Source: Eledone cirrhosa (lineage: Eukaryota). From it: a stretch of DNA of 64,000 nucleotides. The notes beneath the pieces are model-generated. The model was not told where the DNA came from, did not search any database, and worked only from the letters and a program-made list of their open reading frames with translations. The DNA lies in assembly GCA_964016885.1 (NCBI GenBank), contig OZ024745.1:68014001-68078000 (forward strand). Direction: 5' to 3'. The translations under genes and the position numbers were made by a program. Shown piece by piece: positions 2,991 through 63,427 of the stretch (positions are counted from its first letter, which is position 1; each line of letters begins with the position of its first letter).

Positions 2991-3644
2991 CCGGTATCAA
3001 GCGACACCGCCGGAGGGAAACAACAGTTGTGATGGCAATCGACACAAAAAGAAACCGGTCAGTCAAAGTCCAGTTACGAGGTTTCGTAATGTGCTAAAAC
3101 GGCTCTGCGATTTCTATGATAACTGACAAATACGATCAACGTGCCTGCAGCAAATGTCGCACGAATCTTGTTATTTCAATTACCAAATCTCTCGAAATCT
3201 TTCAACTGGCTTTTGACGTATATTCTTTACGTCAAACACTTTATATTTTGAGTGCCATATGTGTTTCAAGACCGATCGAGTGTCAGGTCAAGGTGATGAA
3301 CCTTTAGTGCGACCAGTCACTAGTAAAACATCAGAAATTTTAACGAACGTTCCTTCAGCACTTTCACACGATCGGAATCAGTCATAAAGCCTGCCAGAGT
3401 ATTCTCATAAAAACGTCAACAGGCGTTGCGTTGCTGCGAAGTTTCTTCCTCAACTCTAGACGCTCAATTAAAAGTAGTAGCCTCTTGTAGTGTGCCTTGA
3501 GCATAGGGAGAAGGTTAACGATGACAAAACTTCAAGACGCAAAATGAAATTCAACCGGAATAGCAGGCGGTATTGAACGGTGGTACATTGAGACATTGAG
3601 GTGTGGAACAGGCGCTGGGATCGTTGGGTACTTTTCTAAGAAGG

Positions 3645-9048: not shown

Positions 9049-9115
9049 TTTTATCTGATGAGGACGCACTGAAAAAAAACAACACAGTGCCTTTGAAATA
9101 ATATATATAATAAAG
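9049..9115 (+). ncRNA. Hammerhead ribozyme motif (related to family G, cf. 55831)
   Basis: uuuuau-CUGAUGA-GGACGCACUG...CAGUGCCUUU-GAAA-(UA-rich stem III)-AUA-auaaag; downstream sequence resembles 55.9 kb and ends in (TA)n. Confidence 0.6.
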
Positions 9116-22929: not shown

Positions 22930-23030
22930 GGCCAGTCTGCTGATATGCAAATCTGGCCGATCAGTGGATCTGCTAATATGCAGATCTGACTGATCAGCCA
23001 GTCTGCTAATATGCAAATCAGGCCGATCAG
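22930..23030 (+). promoter_or_regulatory. Three 33-bp repeats, each with an octamer or near-octamer (ATGCAAAT 22945, ATGCAGAT 22978, ATGCAAAT 23011)
   Basis: Motifs read directly and largely retained in the 37.9 kb copy; function inferred. Confidence 0.45.
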
Positions 23031-23097
23031 TCACTGTGTATTTTTGAAAATAACATATATTTTCACTAGCCCTGACAGTTTGGCAGGTGAACAGTGA

Positions 23098-24436: not shown

Positions 24437-24888
24437 CATCGGAGCAGAGTCCTAGCCCGAATGATTGAAACTTTATTCTTATTTTATTACCTTATTTATT
24501 TTCGTATGTTAACATACTTTACATTTCATCTGTAACCTACATTTTACCTTTCTCAATGAACTCTAAAAATTTATAGATTTGGGAAATATTATTAGCATCA
24601 TTATGAAAAGAGATTTTCACACAATTTAGCTGAGCTAAACATATTTAATATGATTCATCATCTTATTTAATATGATTCACCAGTCTACCACCCCAAAACA
24701 GGAACGGGTTTCCAAACAGTTTTCAGTTATCAAATTTTATTCATAGGGGTTTGGGTCCACTCGAAGTTGTAATAAAAATACTTTCTCAAAATCTGCTTAG
24801 TAGGATCAAACCCGGAATCACATAGCCGCGAACTTCGTAACCACTAAGAATAAACTCATGGTATGATAGCAATAAATACCAGAGTGTA

Positions 24889-25422
24889 ATGTTCATCGAT
24901 GCAACCCCTAGAGGTGAATTAGCTTACAAATTTAGAAGGGCCCTAAATAAACATAAACTCAATATTAAGATAGTAGAAAGACCAGGTACCTCCGTAAAAA
25001 CACTTATTAGCAAGACATACCCTTTTCAAAGACCCTCATGTATAGATAAGAAATGTATAACCTGTAAAATAAGCCCCCATATTAACTGTAAAACTAGAAA
25101 TGTAGTGTATAGCATAAGATGTACTGAAGGACAATGTAGAGACAAAAATATAGTTTACATAGGTGAGACAGCTCGTAGTGTAGGGGAACGGATAAATGAA
25201 CACTGGCGAGACCTTCAAGATAGTAAAGAATCATCTGTACTCTACCAACATGCTAAAATAGAACACAAGGGTAAATTAGAGAACACAAAAATAAAAATAG
25301 AATCTACACACAGAAAAGACGCAATGTTTAGACAAATTACAGAGGCAATAAACATAAAAGAATTACAACCAAAATTAAATAGAAAATATGAGTGGAACAG
25401 CAACATCACAACTTACAATTAA
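24889..25422 (+). CDS. Penelope-like element GIY-YIG endonuclease, C-terminal part of a truncated ORF
   Basis: Cys-rich linker (CxxxxCxxC...C), NVVYSIRC...C...YIGET.R...R..EH, RQITEAI...LN; frame stays open about 16 codons upstream of the ATG. Confidence 0.85.
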   Translation: MFIDATPRGELAYKFRRALNKHKLNIKIVERPGTSVKTLISKTYPFQRPSCIDKKCITCKISPHINCKTRNVVYSIRCTEGQCRDKNIVYIGETARSVGERINEHWRDLQDSKESSVLYQHAKIEHKGKLENTKIKIESTHRKDAMFRQITEAINIKELQPKLNRKYEWNSNITTYN

Positions 25423-25623
25423 GGACAAAATGAAAACACACACACACATAGAACAAACAACCAACCAGTAACATGTAAATAAACAAATAAATAAATGAAC
25501 ATAAACACACACAGACACCCGGATGTGGCGCATGCGCAGACTGAGCACACAACACACACACAGAAACAAAATGGCGTAGGACAGAACAAAGGAGAGGCAC
25601 AGAAACAAAGAAAGGAATCCCCA

Positions 25624-25666
25624 GTCACTGAAGAGGTCACAGAGTGTGTGACGAAAGAACTATGAC
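25624..25666 (+). ncRNA. Minimal hammerhead ribozyme in the PLE 3' repeat
   Basis: GUCA-CUGAAGA-gGUCACagaguguGUGAC-GAAA-GAACUA-UGAC; decayed homologs at about 57180 (+) and 42340-42385 (-). Confidence 0.75.
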
Positions 25667-26129
25667 AATATATAAACAACTATCTGGTTGTGGAACCAAC
25701 CAACCAGAAATTTATAAATTTATAAATTTATTATAAATTTATTATAATAAATTGAAGTGAAAGCAACTGGTGCGTGTGTTTCTTATTGGCAACATGACCC
25801 TCCCAAAGTATAACAATATCGGTTTCAACACACGATTTCAGATAAAGAATCTTGCTAAACAAATTCAGAAACGAAATATATATATATGTATGCACACACA
25901 CATATATATATGTGTATATTTGTATATATTTGTCTGTCTGTCTATCTCTCCCTCTCTTTACATATATATGTTTAGTTTTAATCTATTAATGAGCTCATTT
26001 GTTTTTTTTCTTTTCTCGTGACAAACAATACAGCGATCTTCTGTTGTCAATAGCAACACATACAATAACGTGCTGTTTTCCTCATTGATATCTCATATTA
26101 ATGACTATCCCTATTACAAAAGTTCAATG

Positions 26130-26195
<66 letters not shown>

Positions 26196-26203
26196 AAGTA
26201 TGA

Positions 26204-26296
26204 CCCCAACGGCAGAGCTCAAGCCGTTTCGACGGCTATTTCTGGACTAAATTAGAATTTTAGCCTGGTGAATAAATAGCCGAACTTTTCAAGAGG
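26204..26296 (-). ncRNA. Hammerhead ribozyme, U3-A8 core, long stem II
   Basis: CCUC-UUGAAAA-GuuCGGCUAUUU...AAAUAGCCGuC-GAAA-CGGCuugagcucuGCCGUU-GGGG. Confidence 0.7.
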
Positions 26297-27421
26297 GTAC
26301 ATCCTTATATGGGAAGATTGTAGTTGTCAAGAGGATTGGTTAACATTTGTTGTAAACACAAATAAGTCTATCATGGCATTTAGTGGGAGGTAGGGGTGGC
26401 TGAACTTGCCTGTAGAACAATAGGGGAGTGAGTGGAGCGGTCAAGCGTTGAAAGTGATATGTATACAGCAGAATCTAAGGATAGTGTATGAAGTGGGGAA
26501 GGGACGTTATAGAATAGGTAAATCGAAAGAGAGTAGGAAACAATAAAAGATACTAGAAAGAAAAAAAAAATATATATATATATATATAAAATTAGATAGT
26601 GAGAAATGAATAAAGAAATCACAATGCTAATTTACAAATACAGGTTAATATGTTGAGAATAGAAAAAACTTATAGAAATTACAAAACAGATACAAACTTA
26701 AAGGGGCTTTTAACACATCTTCTATAAGTAGTTAGTAAAACGTATTCGGCCAATTCTATCTTCAAATAGGTAAATGTATCTCTTTTCTTTTCCTCTTTGT
26801 CTCCTTCTTCCCCCTGTCTCTTCCTATCACTTCCTTCCACCCCCTATTTTCTTCCTCGTCTGCTTTCCCCTTTCGCCTACCCCGATGCAGCCCATCGGGC
26901 CTTGTAGCATCAGTTCCCCCACCCCTGTTATTTTAAGATACAATTGGCCGAATACGTTTTACTAACTACTTAGAGCAGATGTGTTAAAAACCGCTTGAAG
27001 TTTGTATCTGCTTTGTAATTTCTATAAGTTTTTTCTATTCTCAACTTATTAACCTGTATTTGTAAGATAGCATTGTGATTTCTTTATTCATTTCTCACTA
27101 TCTAATTTTATATATATATATTTTTTATTTTTTATTTATTTATTTTTTTAAAAATTTCTTTCTAGTATCTTTCATTGTCTCCTACTCTCTTTCGATTTAC
27201 CTATTCTATAACCTCCATCCCCCACTTCATACACTATCCTTAGAATCTGATGTATACATATCACTTTCAACGCTTGACCGCTCCACTCACTCCCTTATTG
27301 TTCTACAGGCAAGTTCAGCCACCCCTACCTCCCACCAAATGCCATGATAGACTTATTTGTGTTTACAACAAATGTTAACCAATCCTCTTGACAACTACAA
27401 TCTTCCCATATAAGGAAGTAC

Positions 27422-27515
27422 CCCCTTGAAAAGTTCGGCTATTTATTCACCAGGCTAAAAATTCTAATTTAGTCAAGAAATAGCCGTCGAAGCGACTTGA
27501 GCTCTGCCGTCGGGG
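27422..27515 (+). ncRNA. Mirror copy of the family C hammerhead (GAAA changed to GAAG)
   Basis: CCCC-UUGAAAA...GAAG-CGAC...GCCGUC-GGGG. Confidence 0.6.
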
Positions 27516-27592
27516 TCATACTTTTTCCTATTTCCCACTCTACTACCCTGGTGCGTTATGGTCCATTTGGTTCCTTACCACAATTCCTTTGT

Positions 27593-27856: not shown

Positions 27857-27911
27857 ACTGCTATATATATTTCGGTGACAGCCATCTTTGGCTGTGACCT
27901 CTTCAGGCAGT
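27857..27911 (-). ncRNA. Canonical type I hammerhead ribozyme
   Basis: ACUGC-CUGAAGA-GGUcACAGCCAaagaUGGCUGUcACC-GAAA-UAUAUAUA-GCAGU; all core nucleotides present. Confidence 0.85.
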
Positions 27912-33182: not shown

Positions 33183-34746
33183 ATCTACCCCGGAGGTCGT
33201 TGGTATATATATAGGACGGGATCTACCCCGGTGGTCGTTGGTATATATATACGACGGGATCTACCCCGGTGGTCGTTGGTATATATATAGGACGGGATCT
33301 ACCCCGGTGGTCGTTGGTATATATATATAGGACGGGATCTACCCCGGTGGTCGTTGGTATATATATACGACGGGATCTACCCTGGTGGTCGTTGGTATAT
33401 ATATACGACGGGATGTACCCCGGTGGTCGTTGGTATATATATACGACGGGATCTACCCCGGGGGTCGTTGGTATATATATACGACGGGATCTACCCCGGT
33501 GGTCGTTGGTATATATATACGACGGGATCTACCCCGATGGTCGTTGGTATATATATACGACGGGATCTACCCCGGTGGTCGTTGGTATATATATATACGA
33601 CGGGATCTACCCCGGTGGTCATTGGTATATATATATACGACGGGATCTACCCCGGTGGTCATTGGTATATATATACGACGGGATCTACCCTGGTAGTCGT
33701 TGGTATATATATAGGACGGGATCTACCCCGGTGGTCGTTGGTATATATATACGACGGGATCTACCCCGGTGGTCGTTGGTATATATATATATATATAGGA
33801 CGGGATCTACCCCGGTGGTCGTTGGTATATATATACGACGGGATCTACCCCGGTGTTCGTTGGTATATATATATATATATAGGACGGGATCTACCCCGGT
33901 GGTCGTTGGTATATATATACGACGGGATCTACCCTGGTGGTCGTTGGTATATATGTACGACGGGATCTACCCCGGTGGTCGTTGGTATATATATACGACG
34001 GGATCTACCCCGGTGGTCGTTGGTATATATATACGACGGGATCTACCCCGGTGGTCATTGGTATATATATAGGACGGGATCTACCCCGGTGGTCGTTGGT
34101 ATATATATACGACGGGATCTACCCCGGTGGTCGTTGGTATATATATATACGACGGGATCTACCCCGGCCGGTGGTCATTGGTATATATATACGACGGGAT
34201 CTACCCCGGTGGTCGTTGGTATATATATATACGACGGGATCTACCCCGGCCGGTGGTCATTGGTATATATATACGACGGGATCTACCCCGGTGGTCGTTG
34301 GTATATATATATACGACGGGATCTACCCCGATGGTCGTTGGTATATATATACGACGGGATCTACCCTGGTTGTCGTTGGTATATATATATACGACGGGAT
34401 CTACCCCGGTGGTCGTTGGTATATATATACGACGGGATCTACCCTGGTTGTCGTTGGTATATATATACGACGGGATCTACCCCGGTGGTCGTTGGTATAT
34501 ATATAGGACGGGATCTACCCCGGTGGTCGTTGGTATATATATACGAAGGGATCTACCCCGGTGGTCGTTGGTATATATATATACGACGGGATCTACCCCG
34601 GTGGTCGTTGGTATATATATATACGACGGGATCTACCCCGGTGGTCGTTGGTATATATATACGAAGGGATCTACCCCGGTGGTCGTTGGTATATATATAG
34701 GACGGGATCTACCCCGGTGGTCGTTGGTATATATATACGACGGGAT
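33183..34746. repeat. Minisatellite, 38-bp core unit (GACGGGATCTACCCCGGTGGTCGTTGGTATATATATAC), about 40 copies with variable TA length
   Basis: Read directly. Confidence 0.97.
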
Positions 34747-37614: not shown

Positions 37615-37975
37615 TACATGTAATCCGAGTTTTTCGAATATTAATAATAACATTCGACTTGTTTGCAATTAAACAAACAAGCCTCATTTTTATAACCATG
37701 TCAGTAGAATGAACCCTTCATTCTTGCTCTTGTGTTGGCATGTAAATAGAACTGCAGACACTAATGTTTCTTCATCAGTACAACCCACTGTTCACCTGCC
37801 AACTGTCAGAGCTAGTGAAAATATATGCTATTCTCTAAAATATACAGTGACTGATCGGCCTGATTTGCATATTAGCAGACTGGCTGATAAGTCAGATCTT
37901 GCATATTAGCAGATCCACTGATCCGCCAGATTTGCATATCAGCAGACTGGCCAGTCAGTTTCCTGTATACGAGCG

Positions 37976-43233: not shown

Positions 43234-43273
<40 letters not shown>

Positions 43274-43278
<5 letters not shown>

Positions 43279-43745
43279 GTAAGTATGTATGTATACGTAC
43301 ATGCATACATGTATACAGACGTACAGTAGTATGTATATATATACATACATGCACACATATATATATATATGCACGTATCGGTTATATACTTTCAGACGTT
43401 CAACCATCTGGCAGGAAGATATACGATGCTGACGATAGCTAATAAGCTTGAAACTAGTACATCGTTCCTGTGTCAGTGTTGAACAAAAAGGTGACGTGGT
43501 TGCCTAAACACCGTACGGCGTAATTCGGGCTGTTTGTTTCTTTACAAACAAACAAACCGAGCATTATAATAAATGTTCGGTAAACCGATACGTGCATATA
43601 TATATGTGTGCATGTATGTATATATATATACATACTACTGTACGTCTGTATACATGTATGTATGTACGTATACATACATACATACTTACATTTAGGTAAG
43701 TGCCGTACTAAGAGTGAGAAATGAAATTTCGTTTCATTCTATTCC

Positions 43746-43750
<5 letters not shown>
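43274..43750 (+). mobile_element. Family N copy with 5' inverted arm, in (TA)n
   Basis: Arms about 43274-43383/43584-43694; homologous to 61.7-62.7 kb. Confidence 0.85.
43423..43465 (+). ncRNA. Minimal type I hammerhead ribozyme
   Basis: ACGAUG-CUGACGA-uAGCUaauaAGCUu-GAAA-CUAGUA-CAUCGU. Confidence 0.85.
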
Positions 43751-43786
<36 letters not shown>

Positions 43787-43788
<2 letters not shown>

Positions 43789-43843
43789 AACGAGTAGGAC
43801 CTCGACGGCTGAGCTCAAGCCGTTTCGACGGCTAATTCTGGAC
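43787..43843 (-). mobile_element. Family C short fragment (HHR 3' half)
   Basis: ggaacgagtaggacctcgacggctgagctcaagccgtttcgacggctaattctggac. Confidence 0.75.
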
Positions 43844-44177
43844 ATATATATGTATATGTGTGTGTGTGTATGTATATATTTATATGTATGTATGTGTAGA
43901 TGTGTGTATTGCTTACCACGTGTGTTTGTAAACTTATTTATTTGTGTCCTTTCCTGTATCGCTGTCAACTTTATAATAATTTTTATTTTCTTAAGTCGTA
44001 TATTTTTTATTTTTATGTGACGGCCTATTGCATTATATGTTTGTTCATTGTTTTTTTTTTATTTTTTCTTATAATTAATTGTGTGGGTGCGTATGTAGGT
44101 GTATGTGCATATATATCTATATAAGTATGTGCGTGTATATATGTGTGTATGTATGTGTATGTACGTGTGTATATATA

Positions 44178-48367: not shown

Positions 48368-50218
48368 CTATAGTCTGATGTAGAGTGAAGGCCCATTCAC
48401 ACGGGCCATTCTCGCCACTTTCACCCATCTTTCATAAAAACGGCTGGGGTGCAGCTCCTCTCTCTCCATTCTGATCCTTCTTCCGAAATGATATCGGAAG
48501 AAACGGACCAGTTGTTGGCCAGAGAGAGCGGTGTCTGACCTCAGTCCTTTCAGACGCGTCCACCATACAACCTCTTTCGCCATGGCTATTACGCACAGAA
48601 ACACCGCCTCTTCTTCGTTTTTGAAGAGGGGAGGCGGCTTGATCGTTACAATAGACTCGGTGGTCAACCATATCGGTCCCACCCTTGACAGCAGTCGTTC
48701 GACATAGCCCCACAGATCGGTAATGCCCGAGCAGTGTACCAATGCGTGTGCAACGGTTTCCTCGTCGCACACGCATCTGGGACAGATCTTTTTCGAGGGG
48801 TCCCTACCCGGGCGCCCGTGTCTGTAGAGCCTTTCTCGAACGGGCAGAGCCCCTCGGTAGTACTGCCAAGCCAGCGACCTCTGGAAGTTATCCATGGGTC
48901 CCGGGCTGAATGTCCTACAGAACAGGTTGGCCAGTTCGTCTTCCTCCATGCCTAGGGCTTCTCTGAGGGCGTCGTCGCACCTGCTAACCACCAGCCCTCT
49001 ATAGAATGACGAGGTGGATTCTCCACTGACAGCCGGGTCCGCCTGCCAGAGAGCCGTGAGCGCCTGGGAACACTCGGTGTGCCAGGCGCCCAGTTTTCTC
49101 GCTCTTTGCTTGACCCAGGAATGCAGCTCGGTGAGCGAGACGAGTCTGGGAAAGGCTCGCCTCACAAACGGGGCCCACACCGGTTGACCGGTGAGGAATA
49201 CCTGGAGGTGCCGTAGCCTTAATGCGTGTTTACGCATCATCAGCCACGGCATCCCCAGCCATCCTTTTGAAGGGTGTTGACAGCAGATGGATCTCCTCAC
49301 CATAGGAGCCCGCTTCTTCCAAAGGAATTGGAAGAGCGCGCGCTCCATTTTGGCGAGCGTTTCCCTTGGGCAAGGCACGACGGTCAGGCGGTAGTAGATG
49401 ACGGACGCTATATAAGTGTTCGCCACCTCCGCCCGACCTTTCAGGGACAGTTTGCACTCGGCCCACTTCTGGGTCAGTGCAAATACCCTGTTCGTTACCT
49501 CACCCCTGTACTTCTCCACCTGGAGGTCTGGTCCTAACCAGACCCCGAGCAACTTCACCGGGCCCTCCGTCCAGCGTCCGACGACGCCATCGGAGGGCAT
49601 CGATTTGCCCCTCCACGTGCCGAGTTGCAGACCGATCGACTTGTCACGGTTCAGCTTAGCCCCTGTAAACCTTTCGTACTCCTTCAGTAAGGTGCCGATT
49701 GCCCCGATTTCCGAGGCCGTCGACACCATCACTGTTACGTCATCGGCGTAGGCAAACACCGCTTTCCGCAATCCCGCTTCCAACGGGATGCCCTGCAACA
49801 ACTCCAACTTACGCAACAGTGGCTCTAGAGTCACTACATACAGAAGAGAGGAGAGAGGGCACCATTGTCGGATGGACCGCGCGATTTCGAACGGCTCCGA
49901 GAGGTAGCCGTTCACCTTGACCCTAGAGCAGATGCGGCTGCGGTGCATGGCATTGATCCAGCCCCTGAAAGCGGGTCCGAAGCCTGCCGCCGCTAGCACC
50001 GCATCCAGGTAACCATGGTCGACCCTATCGAATGCCTTAGATTGATCCAAGTTGATCAGGGCCCGACCAAAGCCTGGTTCGTTCCCAACCCTCTCTATGA
50101 TGTATCGCATGAGGTGGAGGTTGTCGTGGATGGACCTGGACGGGATAGCACATGTCTGCGCATCTCCCACCAGGTTGCCCACGACATGCGCCAACATCTT
50201 TGCTAGCACCTTGGCCAA
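48368..50218 (-). pseudogene. ORF2 reverse transcriptase and C-terminal CCHC finger
   Basis: LDQSKAFDRVDH, IRQWCPLS, AYADDV, KLLGV, LSLKGR, CPRC...ETVAHALVHC; the upstream RPITLLN motif lies in another frame. Confidence 0.93.
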
Positions 50219-51801
50219 ATCTGTAACTCTGTATTTAGCAGAGTTATGGGCCTGAAATTATTTATATCGTCCCTCTTGTTCTCGTCCTTCCTCACTAGCG
50301 TGACTACGCCCTTGGCCACAGACAGGTAATTCTCCTGTTCTGTTGCCACTTGCAGTAGACCGCCTCGAGGAGATCGGGGAACAAGTCCGGCATAGCTAGA
50401 TATAGTTCGTATGGAAGACAATCGAGACCCGGGGATTTGCGTTTGCCGCATTGGCTCAGCACGTCCTATATCTCAGCGGCTGAAATCGGCTCCTCGCAGG
50501 ACTTCGCCTCCCTGTCCGAGAGACGCGGCAGGTCGTCAAAGTATGGACCGAAGTCCACTTCCCCAACCGGCTCCCCGCCCCTTCCGAACAATCTGGCAAA
50601 GTGCTTTTCAAAAGCCTCGCACATCTGCTTAGGTTCAAGGATCACCCGTCCATCCTGGTCTCGCAAAAACCGGATAGTGGATCTACTCCCTCTTTTGGCT
50701 TCTGTCACGCGGGCCCAGCTAACAGCTTTGGTCCCCTCGTTCCCCAGAGCACGTATTTTGCTTCGGACGATGCAGCCTTCGTGTTTCGCGTCGAAGAACT
50801 GGCCCAGGGCCGTTCTCGACGCTAGCACTCTGGCGACGTCGCCGCTTCTAATTGCCTCTTCTACACTATCTACCAACTCCCTTTCCTTCCTATTTCTATT
50901 TGAGGCTAACTCCTTACTAAATTCTATAGAGATTACTCTAATCTCTCTTTCGAGAGATCCCCACCACCTGCTGTTGACGATGGCGCCCGTCAACCGCTCC
51001 TTAACTAAAGTGCTAATCCGGTCCCTGTAAGCCCTACTTGCCGGTAAGGACAAGTTGAGCTTCCAGTAACCGGGTCCCTGTCTATGCGTTATGTCAAGGT
51101 TGACCATGCAGGTCACTAACTTGTGGTCTGAATAGCCAACCATGCGCATTTTTGGACAACTTAAAAAGTCCTAATCCTTATTTCTAACTAAGAACCTATC
51201 TAGGTACGACCTAGATGATCAGATGCGGTTTGCCCAAGTCCAGGTTGGCGCAGTCGGAAAATCTAGTCGATATCTATCGGCCAGGTCAAATCGACCAATT
51301 AACCCTTCGAGGCTGTTACACCCTCTCTATCGGGACAGGCCCCTACGTAGTCCCAACGTGCATCTAAGATACCATTCCAGTCCCCACTAATAGCAAGGAG
51401 CGGGACGTCCCTAGAAAAGTCTCCAGACGATGGAAGAAGTCCGGCCGCATTGACCCGAAAGGGCCGTAGGCGGCTACCAGCCTAAACGCTCCGCCTTCAC
51501 CACTGCCAAGGTCCAGAACCACTAGTCAACCCTCCGGGTCCAAATGTACCGTCTGTGTTGCGAGACCCAGATGTTTTTGCAGCAGAACGACAACCCCACC
51601 CCCACCGCCGGGCTGACAGAGAGATGCGTGCATCTCAAAGTCATCAAAGGTGGTGGCCAGCTGTCGCACGTTGCTGATCGGGGCCTCGCAAATAACCATC
51701 ACATCTATACGTTGTGACCTGAGATTATTTAGAAGCATTGCTTGCTTCCAAGTGGAGCCCAGGCCACGCGCATTTAGACAGCCTACTCTTAGCATAGCCA
51801 T
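50203..51801 (-). pseudogene. ORF2 apurinic-like endonuclease and linker, split by frameshifts
   Basis: MAMLRVGCLNARGL, GGVVVLL, YSDHKLV, GPGYWKLN, KGVVTLVRK...NFRPITLLN. Confidence 0.88.
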
Positions 51802-55402: not shown

Positions 55403-55587
55403 GGTAAGGAACCAGGTGGACAACAACACACGAGAGTACTCGATGCTTTAGGTAGTAGAGTGGGTAATAGGAAAAGAGTCAGGACCCCGACGGCAGAGCT
55501 CAAGCCGTTTCGACGGCTATTTCTGGACTAAATTAATTCAGTCCAGAAATAGCCGTCGAAATGGCTTGAGCTCTGACTATTTTCCTA
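55403..55587 (-). mobile_element. Family C fold-back copy
   Basis: Hairpin centred on ggactaaattaattcagtcc; TA flanks. Confidence 0.85.
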
Positions 55588-55603
55588 TATATATATATAT
55601 ATA

Positions 55604-56027
55604 TACAATATATTAACAAATGGAAACCATATTTATTTCATTATACATATTTCAAGGGCTACCAAGGCAGATTATGGTGCGCTTTCATCAGATAAAATAT
55701 AATATAGATTAGTTTTATAAATAAATATTGACATACCCTGAAAAATGCAACCTTCACGGTTGGACTCCAACCGTGAAGGTTGCATTTTTCAGGGTATGTC
55801 AATATTTATTTATAAAACTAATCTATATTATATTTTATCTGATGAAAGCGCACCATAATCTGCCTTGGTAGCCCTTGAAATATGTATAATGAAATAAATA
55901 TGGTTTTATAAATATAGTTTCCATTTGTTAATATAATGTATATTTACTCCAATAATTTGTTGAGTGCTTTATATCAGTTATAAAAAATATTTTGCTTGTT
56001 GTATCCCAACAAATTAAATATAACCTC

Positions 56028-56680: not shown

Positions 56681-56751
56681 TGACGTACATGGGAGTCGAA
56701 CTCACATCTTTCGTTATCCAGACCACTGTGCTACCATTACACCAACACATC
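56681..56751 (-). mobile_element. tRNA-like SINE head or tRNA pseudogene
   Basis: Reverse complement gatgtgttggtgtaatggtagcac...gtgagttcgactcccatgtacgtca; anticodon stem does not pair. Confidence 0.55.
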
Positions 56752-56769
56752 ACCAACACATTTATAAAT

Positions 56770-57382
56770 AAAGAATCATCTGTACTCTACTAACATGCTA
56801 AGATAGAACACAAGGGTAAATTAGAGAACATAGAAATAAAAATAGAATCTACACACAGAAAAGATGCAATGTTTAGACAAATTACAGAGGCAATAAACAT
56901 AAAAGAATTACAACCAAAATTAAATAGAAAATATGAGTGGAACAGCAACATCACAACTTACAATTAAGGACAAAATGAAAACACACACACACATAGAACA
57001 AACAACCAACCAATAACATGTAAATAAATAAATAAATAAACAAATAGATAAATGAACATAAACACACACAGACACCCGGATGTGGCGCATGCGCAAACTG
57101 AGCACACAACACACACACAGAAACAAAATGGCGTAGGACAGAACAAAGGAGAGGCACAGAAACAAAGAAAGGAATCCCCAGTCACTAAAGAGGTCACAGA
57201 GTGTGTGACGAAAGGACTATGACTATATATAAACAACTATCTGGTTGTGGAACCAACCAACCAACCAGAAATTTATAGATTTATAAATTTGTAAATTTAT
57301 AAATATATAATAAATTGAAGTGAAAGAAACTGGTGCGTGTGTTTCTTATTGGCAACATGACCCTCCCAAAGTATAACAATAT
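56770..57382 (+). mobile_element. Second, shorter copy of the Penelope-like element 3' end
   Basis: Near-identical to about 25224-25821; in-frame stop (TAA for CAA); HHR core changed to CUAAAGA. Confidence 0.9.
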
Positions 57383-61676: not shown

Positions 61677-61748
<72 letters not shown>

Positions 61749-61944
61749 ACGTACATACATATGTATACAGACGTACAGTAGTATGTATATATATACATAC
61801 ATGCACACACATATATATATATGTACGTATGGATTTACCGAACATTTATTATAATGCTCGGGATGTTTGTAAATAAACATCCCGAATTAAGCCGTACAGT
61901 GTTTAGCAACCATCGTTGCCCTTTTGTTCAATACTGACAAAGGA

Positions 61945-61987
61945 ACGGTGTACTAGTTTCAAGCTTATTAGCTGTCGTCAGCACCGT
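61945..61987 (-). ncRNA. Minimal hammerhead ribozyme (family N)
   Basis: ACGGUG-CUGACGA-cAGCUaauaAGCUu-GAAA-CUAGUA-CACCGU. Confidence 0.85.
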
Positions 61988-62427
61988 ATACCTTCCTGCC
62001 AGATGATTGAACGTCTGAAAGTATATACTTTCCTTATGCATATTAACGGCTGAGCAGCCTAATTTGCAACGATGGTTGCTAAACACTGTACGGCTTAATT
62101 CGGGATGTTTATTTACAACCATCCCGAGCATTATAATAAATGTTCGGTGAATCCATACGTACATATATATGTGTGCATGTATGTATATATATATATACAT
62201 ACTACTGTACGTCTGTATACATATATGTATGTACGTATACATACTTATATTTAAGTAACAGCCGTACTAAGAGTGAGAAATGAAATTTCGTTTCATTTTT
62301 TCCATTTATCGTTTTCGGTGCGCCCGGCCGATTAACTCACTCGATATGCAAATTAGGCTGCTCAGCCGTTAATATGCATAAGGAAAGTATATACTTTCAG
62401 GCGTTCAATCATCTGGCAAGAAGGTAT

Positions 62428-62470
62428 ACGGTGCTGACGATAGCTAATAAGCTTGAAACTAGTACATCGT
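62428..62470 (+). ncRNA. Minimal hammerhead ribozyme (family N)
   Basis: ACGGUG-CUGACGA-uAGCUaauaAGCUu-GAAA-CUAGUA-CAUCGU. Confidence 0.85.
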
Positions 62471-62735
62471 TCCTTTGTCAGTGTTGAACAAAAGGGAAAC
62501 GATGGTTGCTAAACACTGTACGGCTTAATTCGGGATGTTTGTTTACAAACACACCGAACATTATAATAAATGCTCGGTAAACCCATACGTACATATATAT
62601 ATATGTGTGCATGTATGTATATATATATACATACTACTGTACGTCTGTATACATATATGTATGTACGTATACATACTTATATTTAAGTAACAGCCGTACT
62701 AAGAGTGGGAAATGAAATTTCGTTTCATTTTTTCC

Positions 62736-62768
<33 letters not shown>

Positions 62769-62967: not shown

Positions 62968-63215
62968 ACACGCCCCCCCACACACATGCACACACTCATA
63001 TATGTATATATATATGACTTCTAAATGATTAGAGCTGGTTCATTCGTATGAAATCGTTAGGAATGCACTTATTCTCCACTAACGTATTGAGTACATTATT
63101 TAACTGCGGTTTTGCAGATGAAACTTTGATAAAAATATGCTAGTCGTGTATTGTGCAACATTTAAACGATCAGACTGAATAGGATTTAAAGATTATATAT
63201 ATATATATATATATA

Positions 63216-63423
63216 TAACGAAGGAAATGTGGTAAGGAACCAGGTGGACCATAACGCACCAAAGTACTCAATACTTAGGGTAGTAGAGTGGGTAATAGGA
63301 ACGACTAGGATCCCGACGGCTGAGCCCAAGCCGTTTCGACGGCTAATTTAAAAAAAAAAAATTTTTTTTAGTCCAGAATTAGCCGTCGAAACGGCTTGAG
63401 CTCAGCCGTCGGGGTCCTACTTG

Positions 63424-63427
<4 letters not shown>
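63216..63427 (-). mobile_element. Family C fold-back copy
   Basis: Terminus, HHR 3' half, A/T-rich centre, inverted HHR 3' half; TA flanks. Confidence 0.85.

Follow-up and report, generated by a model that had tools for sequence, protein, structure and literature searches.

In this study, a 64,000-nt stretch of the Eledone cirrhosa genome, referred to as the window, was analysed, and two insertions of one repeat, here called family N, were located in it together with stubs of coding PLEs. The repeat unit is 430 nt long and AT-rich (GC content 36.5%) and bears a single type I hammerhead motif, and unit positions are counted from 62068 as position 1. Both insertions are two-armed, the arms being joined head to head with one ribozyme on each arm. 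The features are as follows:

61680..61740, no strand: (TA)n run read from the sequence, the likely target, next to the minus arm at its 3' end
about 61741..62068, minus strand: inverted arm whose 5' truncation lies at unit position 280, with the S (short) end and no tail; it spans unit positions 280 through 430 and on to about 180
61945..61987, minus strand: hammerhead type I motif whose stem I has a private G-C; in the minus-strand reading, cleavage is predicted after 61951
62068..62737, plus strand: arm of 1.56 units of the 430-nt monomer, with the T (long) end
62155..62240, plus strand: AU-rich branched hairpin of the predicted fold within the unit, repeated at ~62585-62670
62251..62309, plus strand: internal copy of the 59-nt tail between both fixed 3' ends, with a predicted hairpin
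62428..62470, plus strand: hammerhead type I motif with a 6-bp stem I, a 4-bp stem II over U-U and a palindromic stem III of 2 bp; cleavage is predicted after 62464
62683..62737, plus strand: tail at the end of the plus arm, continuing into (TA)n
62738..62766, no strand: (TA)n run next to the plus arm at its 3' end
43272..43382, minus strand: second insertion, A-U subfamily, inverted arm to the S end
43383..43751, plus strand: second insertion, arm that starts at unit position 321 and reaches the T end; it holds the hammerhead at 43423-43465
24841-25879: 3' stub of a young coding element, PLE-A, with a GIY-YIG piece (24841-25422), a tail of 60 nt and, near 25620-25665, a hammerhead-like motif of its own
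56737-56964: second coding-PLE stub

A first-pass annotation had described a tandem repeat with a period of 430 nt, an inverted arm and TA flanks at the 62-kb locus. The period is borne out (62068 against 62498), although the plus arm holds just 1.56 units, and the inverted arm (~61741-62068), the (TA)n on either flank, the GUA at 62462-62464 and the ACUAGU palindrome are all present. The stem I strings quoted for three hammerheads were recovered at 43423-43465 and 62428-62470 on the plus strand and at 61987-61945 on the minus strand. Since the copy at 61945 thus runs opposite to the other two, the 62-kb locus has no same-strand ribozyme pair. As each arm carries one ribozyme, neither window insertion is able to release a cut-to-cut monomer or to dimerise in cis. 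The common ttccat-TA end proposed for the copies at 43.7 and 62.7 kb agrees within ~4 nt, yet the family as a whole uses two ends, of which this is one, and the two-end Penelope signature of the family was overlooked by that first reading.

Copy number, coding content and hammerhead motif of family N

In the host genome of 3.0 Gb, a 35-nt hammerhead core pattern gave 9,286 exact matches (control 0), a 25-mer near the 3' end of family N gave 19,142 (control 0), and a relaxed hammerhead core gave 28,528 (control 5). The relaxed search surfaced younger subfamilies, whose units measure 422-540 nt and whose arms carry up to seven ribozymes, and loci L208, L209, L211, L214 and L220 are the very young ones of this kind. 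Since only 0-3 substitutions separate the units within one insert of these young subfamilies, family N has been active recently. Short, low-depth N pieces were also observed in sequencing runs of two other organisms, where a relative and contamination are both possible.

The longest ATG frames of the unit have 49 and 64 codons, and the longest stop-free frames, when the unit is taken as repeated, have 67 and 72. An RT and GIY-YIG frame between pseudo-LTRs, by which an autonomous EN+ PLE is recognised, is absent from family N, and what was found is the set of traits of a non-LTR retrozyme: a short low-GC unit, tandem and dispersed copies, and no protein coding. The earlier description of a non-coding, retrozyme-like family is supported by ATG frames of at most 64 codons, by sampled arms that never enter a PLE frame and by arrays of at most seven units. 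We consider it very probable that family N belongs among the animal non-LTR retrozymes as a new member, most likely mobilised by a PLE.

The N motif displays the CUGANGA...GAAA...UH core and three stems, open at stem I, as in a type I hammerhead, with helix I of 6 bp, helix II of 4 bp and a palindromic helix III of 2 bp (ACUAGU); a short palindromic helix III is described for metazoan type I hammerheads in PMC4209133. The Rfam hammerhead models gave no match to N at gathering score, nor among the 96 matches up to E 5, and the putative ribozyme is assigned from its core letters and stems. Rfam miRNA matches on the TA-rich hairpin of N, far below their gathering scores, were rejected as composition artefacts. 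At the base of helix II, where the minimal PLE hammerhead has G10.1-C11.1 (consensus from the supplement of PMC4209133), N has U-U and then A-U, and the U-U resembles that of axolotl HHR_Amex2. Apart from N7, the letters of the core are constant between young subfamilies ~14% apart.

To form in cis, helix III would have to close over a loop of 2 nt, with a single pair as the fallback at a computed +5.0 kcal/mol, while two N palindromes paired in trans reach a computed -4.8 kcal/mol. Cleavage of N as a dimer, judged from this palindromic 2-bp helix III, is therefore plausible, and dimer cleavage is given as the established route for such motifs in PMC4209133 and PMC7229834. For Xenopus retrozyme dimers, cleavage is reported in 1 of 9 (bioRxiv 10.64898/2026.07.22.740005). 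At least two ribozymes occur on only 15 of the 219 N arms.

The first-pass annotation had also proposed that the three hammerheads of the window capture a compensatory change in stem I, from A-U through G-U to G-C, and the G-C step of this series is not borne out. Across 174 aligned N ribozymes, the pair is U-G in 75, G-U in 46, A-U in 40, U-U in 5, G-C in 1 and other combinations in 7; the commonest state, U-G, is missing from the window. Genome-wide, the exact G-C form has 5 copies against 947 of the exact G-U form, and the G-C copy of the window carries a second change and stands outside these five. With 1 of 174 and 5 against 947, G-C is private and thus ordinary decay following insertion. 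The stem I covariation between subfamilies is real, and it lies between U-G and either G-U or A-U, the last two being subfamily variants.

Beyond the ribozyme, the N unit folds with z = -7.4, and other helices covary as well, at 209:270 (A-U 68, G-C 31, G-U 5; n=105) and at 61:76 (G-U 157, A-U 30, G-C 29; n=225). Pairing is kept by 14 of the 18 common variants against 79 of the 402 rare ones, a count that excludes slippage and junction columns, takes its structure from one copy and compares related copies. In 38 of the 44 full units (six were dropped for long insertions, redundancy or unclear register), pairs with double changes number 6 against 5.4 in shuffles, with 213 of 500 shuffles as high, and cells with double changes number 39 against 19, with 0 of 500 as high. 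The covariation of N is modest. RNAalifold gave a small covariation term and did not return the active ribozyme fold, and in the lowest-energy folds part of the hammerhead core is hidden in inactive pairing. The word ATGCAAAT at 62346-62353 was considered as an snRNA-type promoter element, of the kind reportedly present in newt satellite 2; it lies inside a predicted helix and is altered in one L209 unit, and this reading was not supported.

Insertion footprint and coding PLEs of the same genome

The arms of family N are 5'-truncated, with scattered 5' ends and random inner head-to-head junctions, and their 3' ends fall mostly at two places. In a 3'-anchored sample of 106 arms from 64 loci (left after removing 6 duplicates), 50 arms finish at the T end (unit positions 229-243, about 242), 38 at the S end (176-187, about 183) and 18 elsewhere. 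The sequence between the S and T ends, the tail, is 59 nt long. A wider census of 134 de-duplicated loci and 219 arms, which includes the 64 loci and, like the N locus sample as a whole, comes mainly from the first 43 Mb of contig C1, yielded 61 head-to-head pairs: 44 are S+T, none is S+S or T+T, and 17 have an odd end. Given independent ends, the chance of 44 S+T out of 44 regular-ended pairs is about 4e-14. (TA)n adjoins 141 of 186 regular 3' ends against 14 of 58 single-arm 5' ends. A strict filter for target-site duplications, which exceed 4 bp in those retrozymes that have them, returned 0 of 143, a figure to be read with the TA flanks in mind, which hide duplications. An attempt to tell from three-way site patterns which unit each arm had primed on came out near even and was uninformative.

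Family N accordingly displays the marks of PLE mobilisation, namely two 3' ends with a tail, 5' truncation, an inverted 5' arm and a bias to TA/microsatellite targets. PLE tails of 30-40 bp, often at one end alone, and an inverted 5'-truncated copy are described in PMC8557442, and in vitro work reported in PMC11167929 attributes the tail to two starts of the RT at internal sites; both target strands were cut and extended there, and hammerhead cleavage was dispensable.

The same genome holds coding elements with this footprint. PLE-A has a frame of 863 aa, present in full in L151-L153, and its GIY-YIG piece gave 150 scored matches of 96-100% identity among 38,821 candidates. Its two ends lie 60 nt apart, at (TA)n, and all eight head-to-head pairs readable by eye are S+T; in a ninth, the second arm reads on. 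The tails measure 59 nt in N, 60 nt in PLE-A and 58 nt in a sister family, PLE-B, a match to N that rests on two coding families. We take PLE-A and PLE-B to be Neptune-like from their motifs (CxxC linker); Pfam gave a weak RVT_1 match alone for PLE-A (E 0.002). The N unit and the PLE-A repeat have no DNA similarity, and the ends of N and PLE-B show no likeness by eye.

Two head-to-head chimeras of N and coding PLEs were found, one at L073/L157 (loose S+T; L073 1462-1578) and one at L141 (two T ends; about 160-430), in each of which an N arm meets the 5'-truncated arm of a coding PLE; deletion between neighbouring elements may have produced them. A third candidate, L094, was rejected because its insertions are separate. 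In L094, at about 2100-2130 and 3500-3530, direct repeats of ~25-30 nt with a non-TA core enclose a PLE-A stub, a possible long target-site duplication.

Template of insertion and rival readings

The 88 regular-ended arms were compared with the predicted cut site: 29 stop well short of it, 57 pass it by more than 10 nt (7 pass it twice), and 2 end within 10 nt, one of these within 3 nt. With 57 of 88 arms crossing the predicted cut site, linear cut monomers did not serve as template. Comparison at 36 polymorphic sites showed 100 differences in 1,595 comparisons between units of one arm and 102 in 1,391 between the two arms of an insert, that is 6-7% inside an insert against 40% between loci, while sites outside this set differ by 4.2-4.9% throughout. 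One variant is copied per insertion event. Taken with the reading through the cut site, this points to an uncut or circular RNA as the template; uniform units would be explained simply by a circle, and a young uniform array would explain them too. The ABAB array L090 was considered as the trace of a dimer circle and set aside, since its end unit is unlike both A and B and a later duplication of DNA fits better; some N arrays, as in L090, look to have grown later through DNA duplication.

We therefore regard family N as a protein-free, high-copy hammerhead repeat with two fixed 3' ends, and with good confidence as a likely non-LTR retrozyme put into (TA)n by the RT/endonuclease of a PLE, probably of Neptune type, from uncut or circular RNA. 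In such a cycle, the minority of loci with at least two same-strand ribozymes would be transcribed, and the ribozymes would cut, likely as dimers, with the monomer perhaps circularised. A helper enzyme would then nick both strands of a TA run and prime one strand at each internal site, the two cDNAs would be joined head to head, and some arrays would afterwards expand by duplication at the DNA level. A more far-reaching version, which we consider possible but less likely than not, makes N a viroid-like circular RNA lineage in which the whole 430-nt fold is selected and whose structural mimicry would by itself suffice to hijack Neptune-type enzymes; an enzyme acting as a dimer would prime both TA strands on one circle at sites 59 nt apart and roll through the ribozyme. 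If so, the 44-of-44 end asymmetry would be a genomic record of retrozyme/PLE integration in animals.

A serious possibility concerns the template step alone: the same Penelope-type insertion may proceed from a linear, uncut, multi-unit transcript with no circle, the ribozyme being weak or acting elsewhere. Read-through of the cut site and uniform units are also expected from a young homogeneous array, rare variants are shared unevenly by the window's own units (L001), unprocessed RNA is given as the main substrate of an anole PLE in PMC11167929, and of nine Xenopus dimers a single one is reported to have cleaved (bioRxiv 10.64898/2026.07.22.740005). Yet the core is fixed across subfamilies about 14% apart, some young arms hold 4-7 near-identical units, and most new arms cross the cut site although two ribozymes are found on only 15 of 219 arms; related retrozymes, moreover, are reported to accumulate as circles (PMC7229834).

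It appears improbable that the N unit is a mere pseudo-LTR of a coding PLE and its copies truncated ends of that element. The footprint of N is purely that of a PLE, the pLTRs of PLEs bear such ribozymes and Xenopus retrozymes cluster with pLTRs (bioRxiv 10.64898/2026.07.22.740005), so that a pLTR ancestry of N is likely. However, in arrays, which reach seven units, the tail is followed directly by another unit, and 312 arm hits in 186 of 221 loci (overlapping loci unmerged; a screen that a rare or distant partner would escape) never lead into same-strand coding sequence of PLE-A or PLE-B, two of them adjoining PLE 3' non-coding ends. Furthermore, 41 single arms share no recurring 5' breakpoint or common upstream sequence save N itself and chance neighbours, and the frames upstream of N arms are a mix of unrelated elements. 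Searching for an autonomous partner by a loose-end motif gave 0 matches. Less probable still is an element of the DNA level, a MITE-like inverted repeat or a minisatellite, with no RNA step and the ribozyme as a passenger: inverted arms, TA flanks and duplication-grown arrays (L090) would suit it, but unequal fixed ends with random inner junctions are unlike terminal inverted repeats. The 5' truncation also speaks against it, as do variants that preserve pairing across the RNA and the fact that PLE-A, which codes for an RT, has the same footprint.

Relation to known systems

With reference to the animal non-LTR retrozymes of mussel (350-390 bp), coral and axolotl (PMC7229834), N has in common a short AT-rich non-coding unit, one type I hammerhead, copies from monomers to arrays and a highly paired predicted fold. 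Its units, at 422-540 nt, exceed the 170-400 nt given there for animal retrozymes, and circles belong to those known retrozymes, whereas N is known here from DNA. N copies are mostly dispersed head-to-head inserts of 0.3-1.7 units in (TA)n with two fixed ends, and the main text of PMC7229834 is without the words 'tail', 'inverted' and 'microsatellite'. Poseidon PAc (PMC11167929; PMC8557442) is like N in its two 3' ends, one-ended tail, inverted 5'-truncated arm, AT-rich/microsatellite targets and a ribozyme upstream of the RT starts; N differs from PLEs of this type in having no reading frame and a tail of 59 nt instead of 30-40, and its starts lie in a non-coding unit, whereas the RT starts of PAc are inside the ORF (PMC11167929). 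PLE-A and PLE-B share with N the (TA)n target, the 58-60 nt tail and the S+T arms, but their hammerhead is a different one, they lack sequence similarity with N, and they have a reading frame for RT and GIY-YIG. Like N, the non-autonomous PLEs (MRC1 and related Chlamys partners; PMC8557442) and the Xenopus retrozymes near pLTRs are head-to-tail non-coding units reliant on PLE machinery; these share sequence with an autonomous partner, while N is linked by its footprint, the partner sequence not being found in PLE-A or PLE-B, the two compared.

PLEs have been named as candidate movers of animal retrozymes (PMC7229834), and their role is backed by co-occurrence and pLTR trees (bioRxiv 10.64898/2026.07.22.740005). 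Family N ties retrozymes to PLEs by insertion scars, that is, fixed twin ends, their strict one-per-arm use and ribozyme read-through, and a coding PLE of this genome that is young and looks intact serves as a control for the footprint. It also predicts two priming sites, a tail length and a circular or uncut template, which are testable in an in vitro system in the style of the anole PLE. No cephalopod retrozyme, or retrozyme with this footprint, was found in the literature searched, which included PMC5680766 (by terms) and the supplement of PMC4209133; the supplements of PMC7229834 and of the 2026 preprint lie outside this scope and could list related families.

The window harbors several other repeats. 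A further frequent (TA)n family, with head-to-head arms and ends ~80 nt apart, occurs at 63215-63425, 55415-55590, 26190-27590 and 43787-43845, probably as stubs of another PLE or non-autonomous family, and a descriptor scan placed hammerhead-like motifs of other families at 9055 and 44846 on the plus strand, at 55839 (plus) and 55691 (minus), and at 27906 on the minus strand. LINE-like RT frames of 629 and 234 aa, apparently of L1/Tx1 type by their motifs, lie at 48368-51170 on the minus strand. A 38-nt minisatellite of about 40 copies occupies 33183-34746, and tandem repeats of 33-34 nt with ATGCAAAT-like words are found at 22936-23033 and 37850-37947. A weak tRNA match (35.4 bits) at 56681-56751, minus strand, is probably the head of a tRNA-derived SINE.
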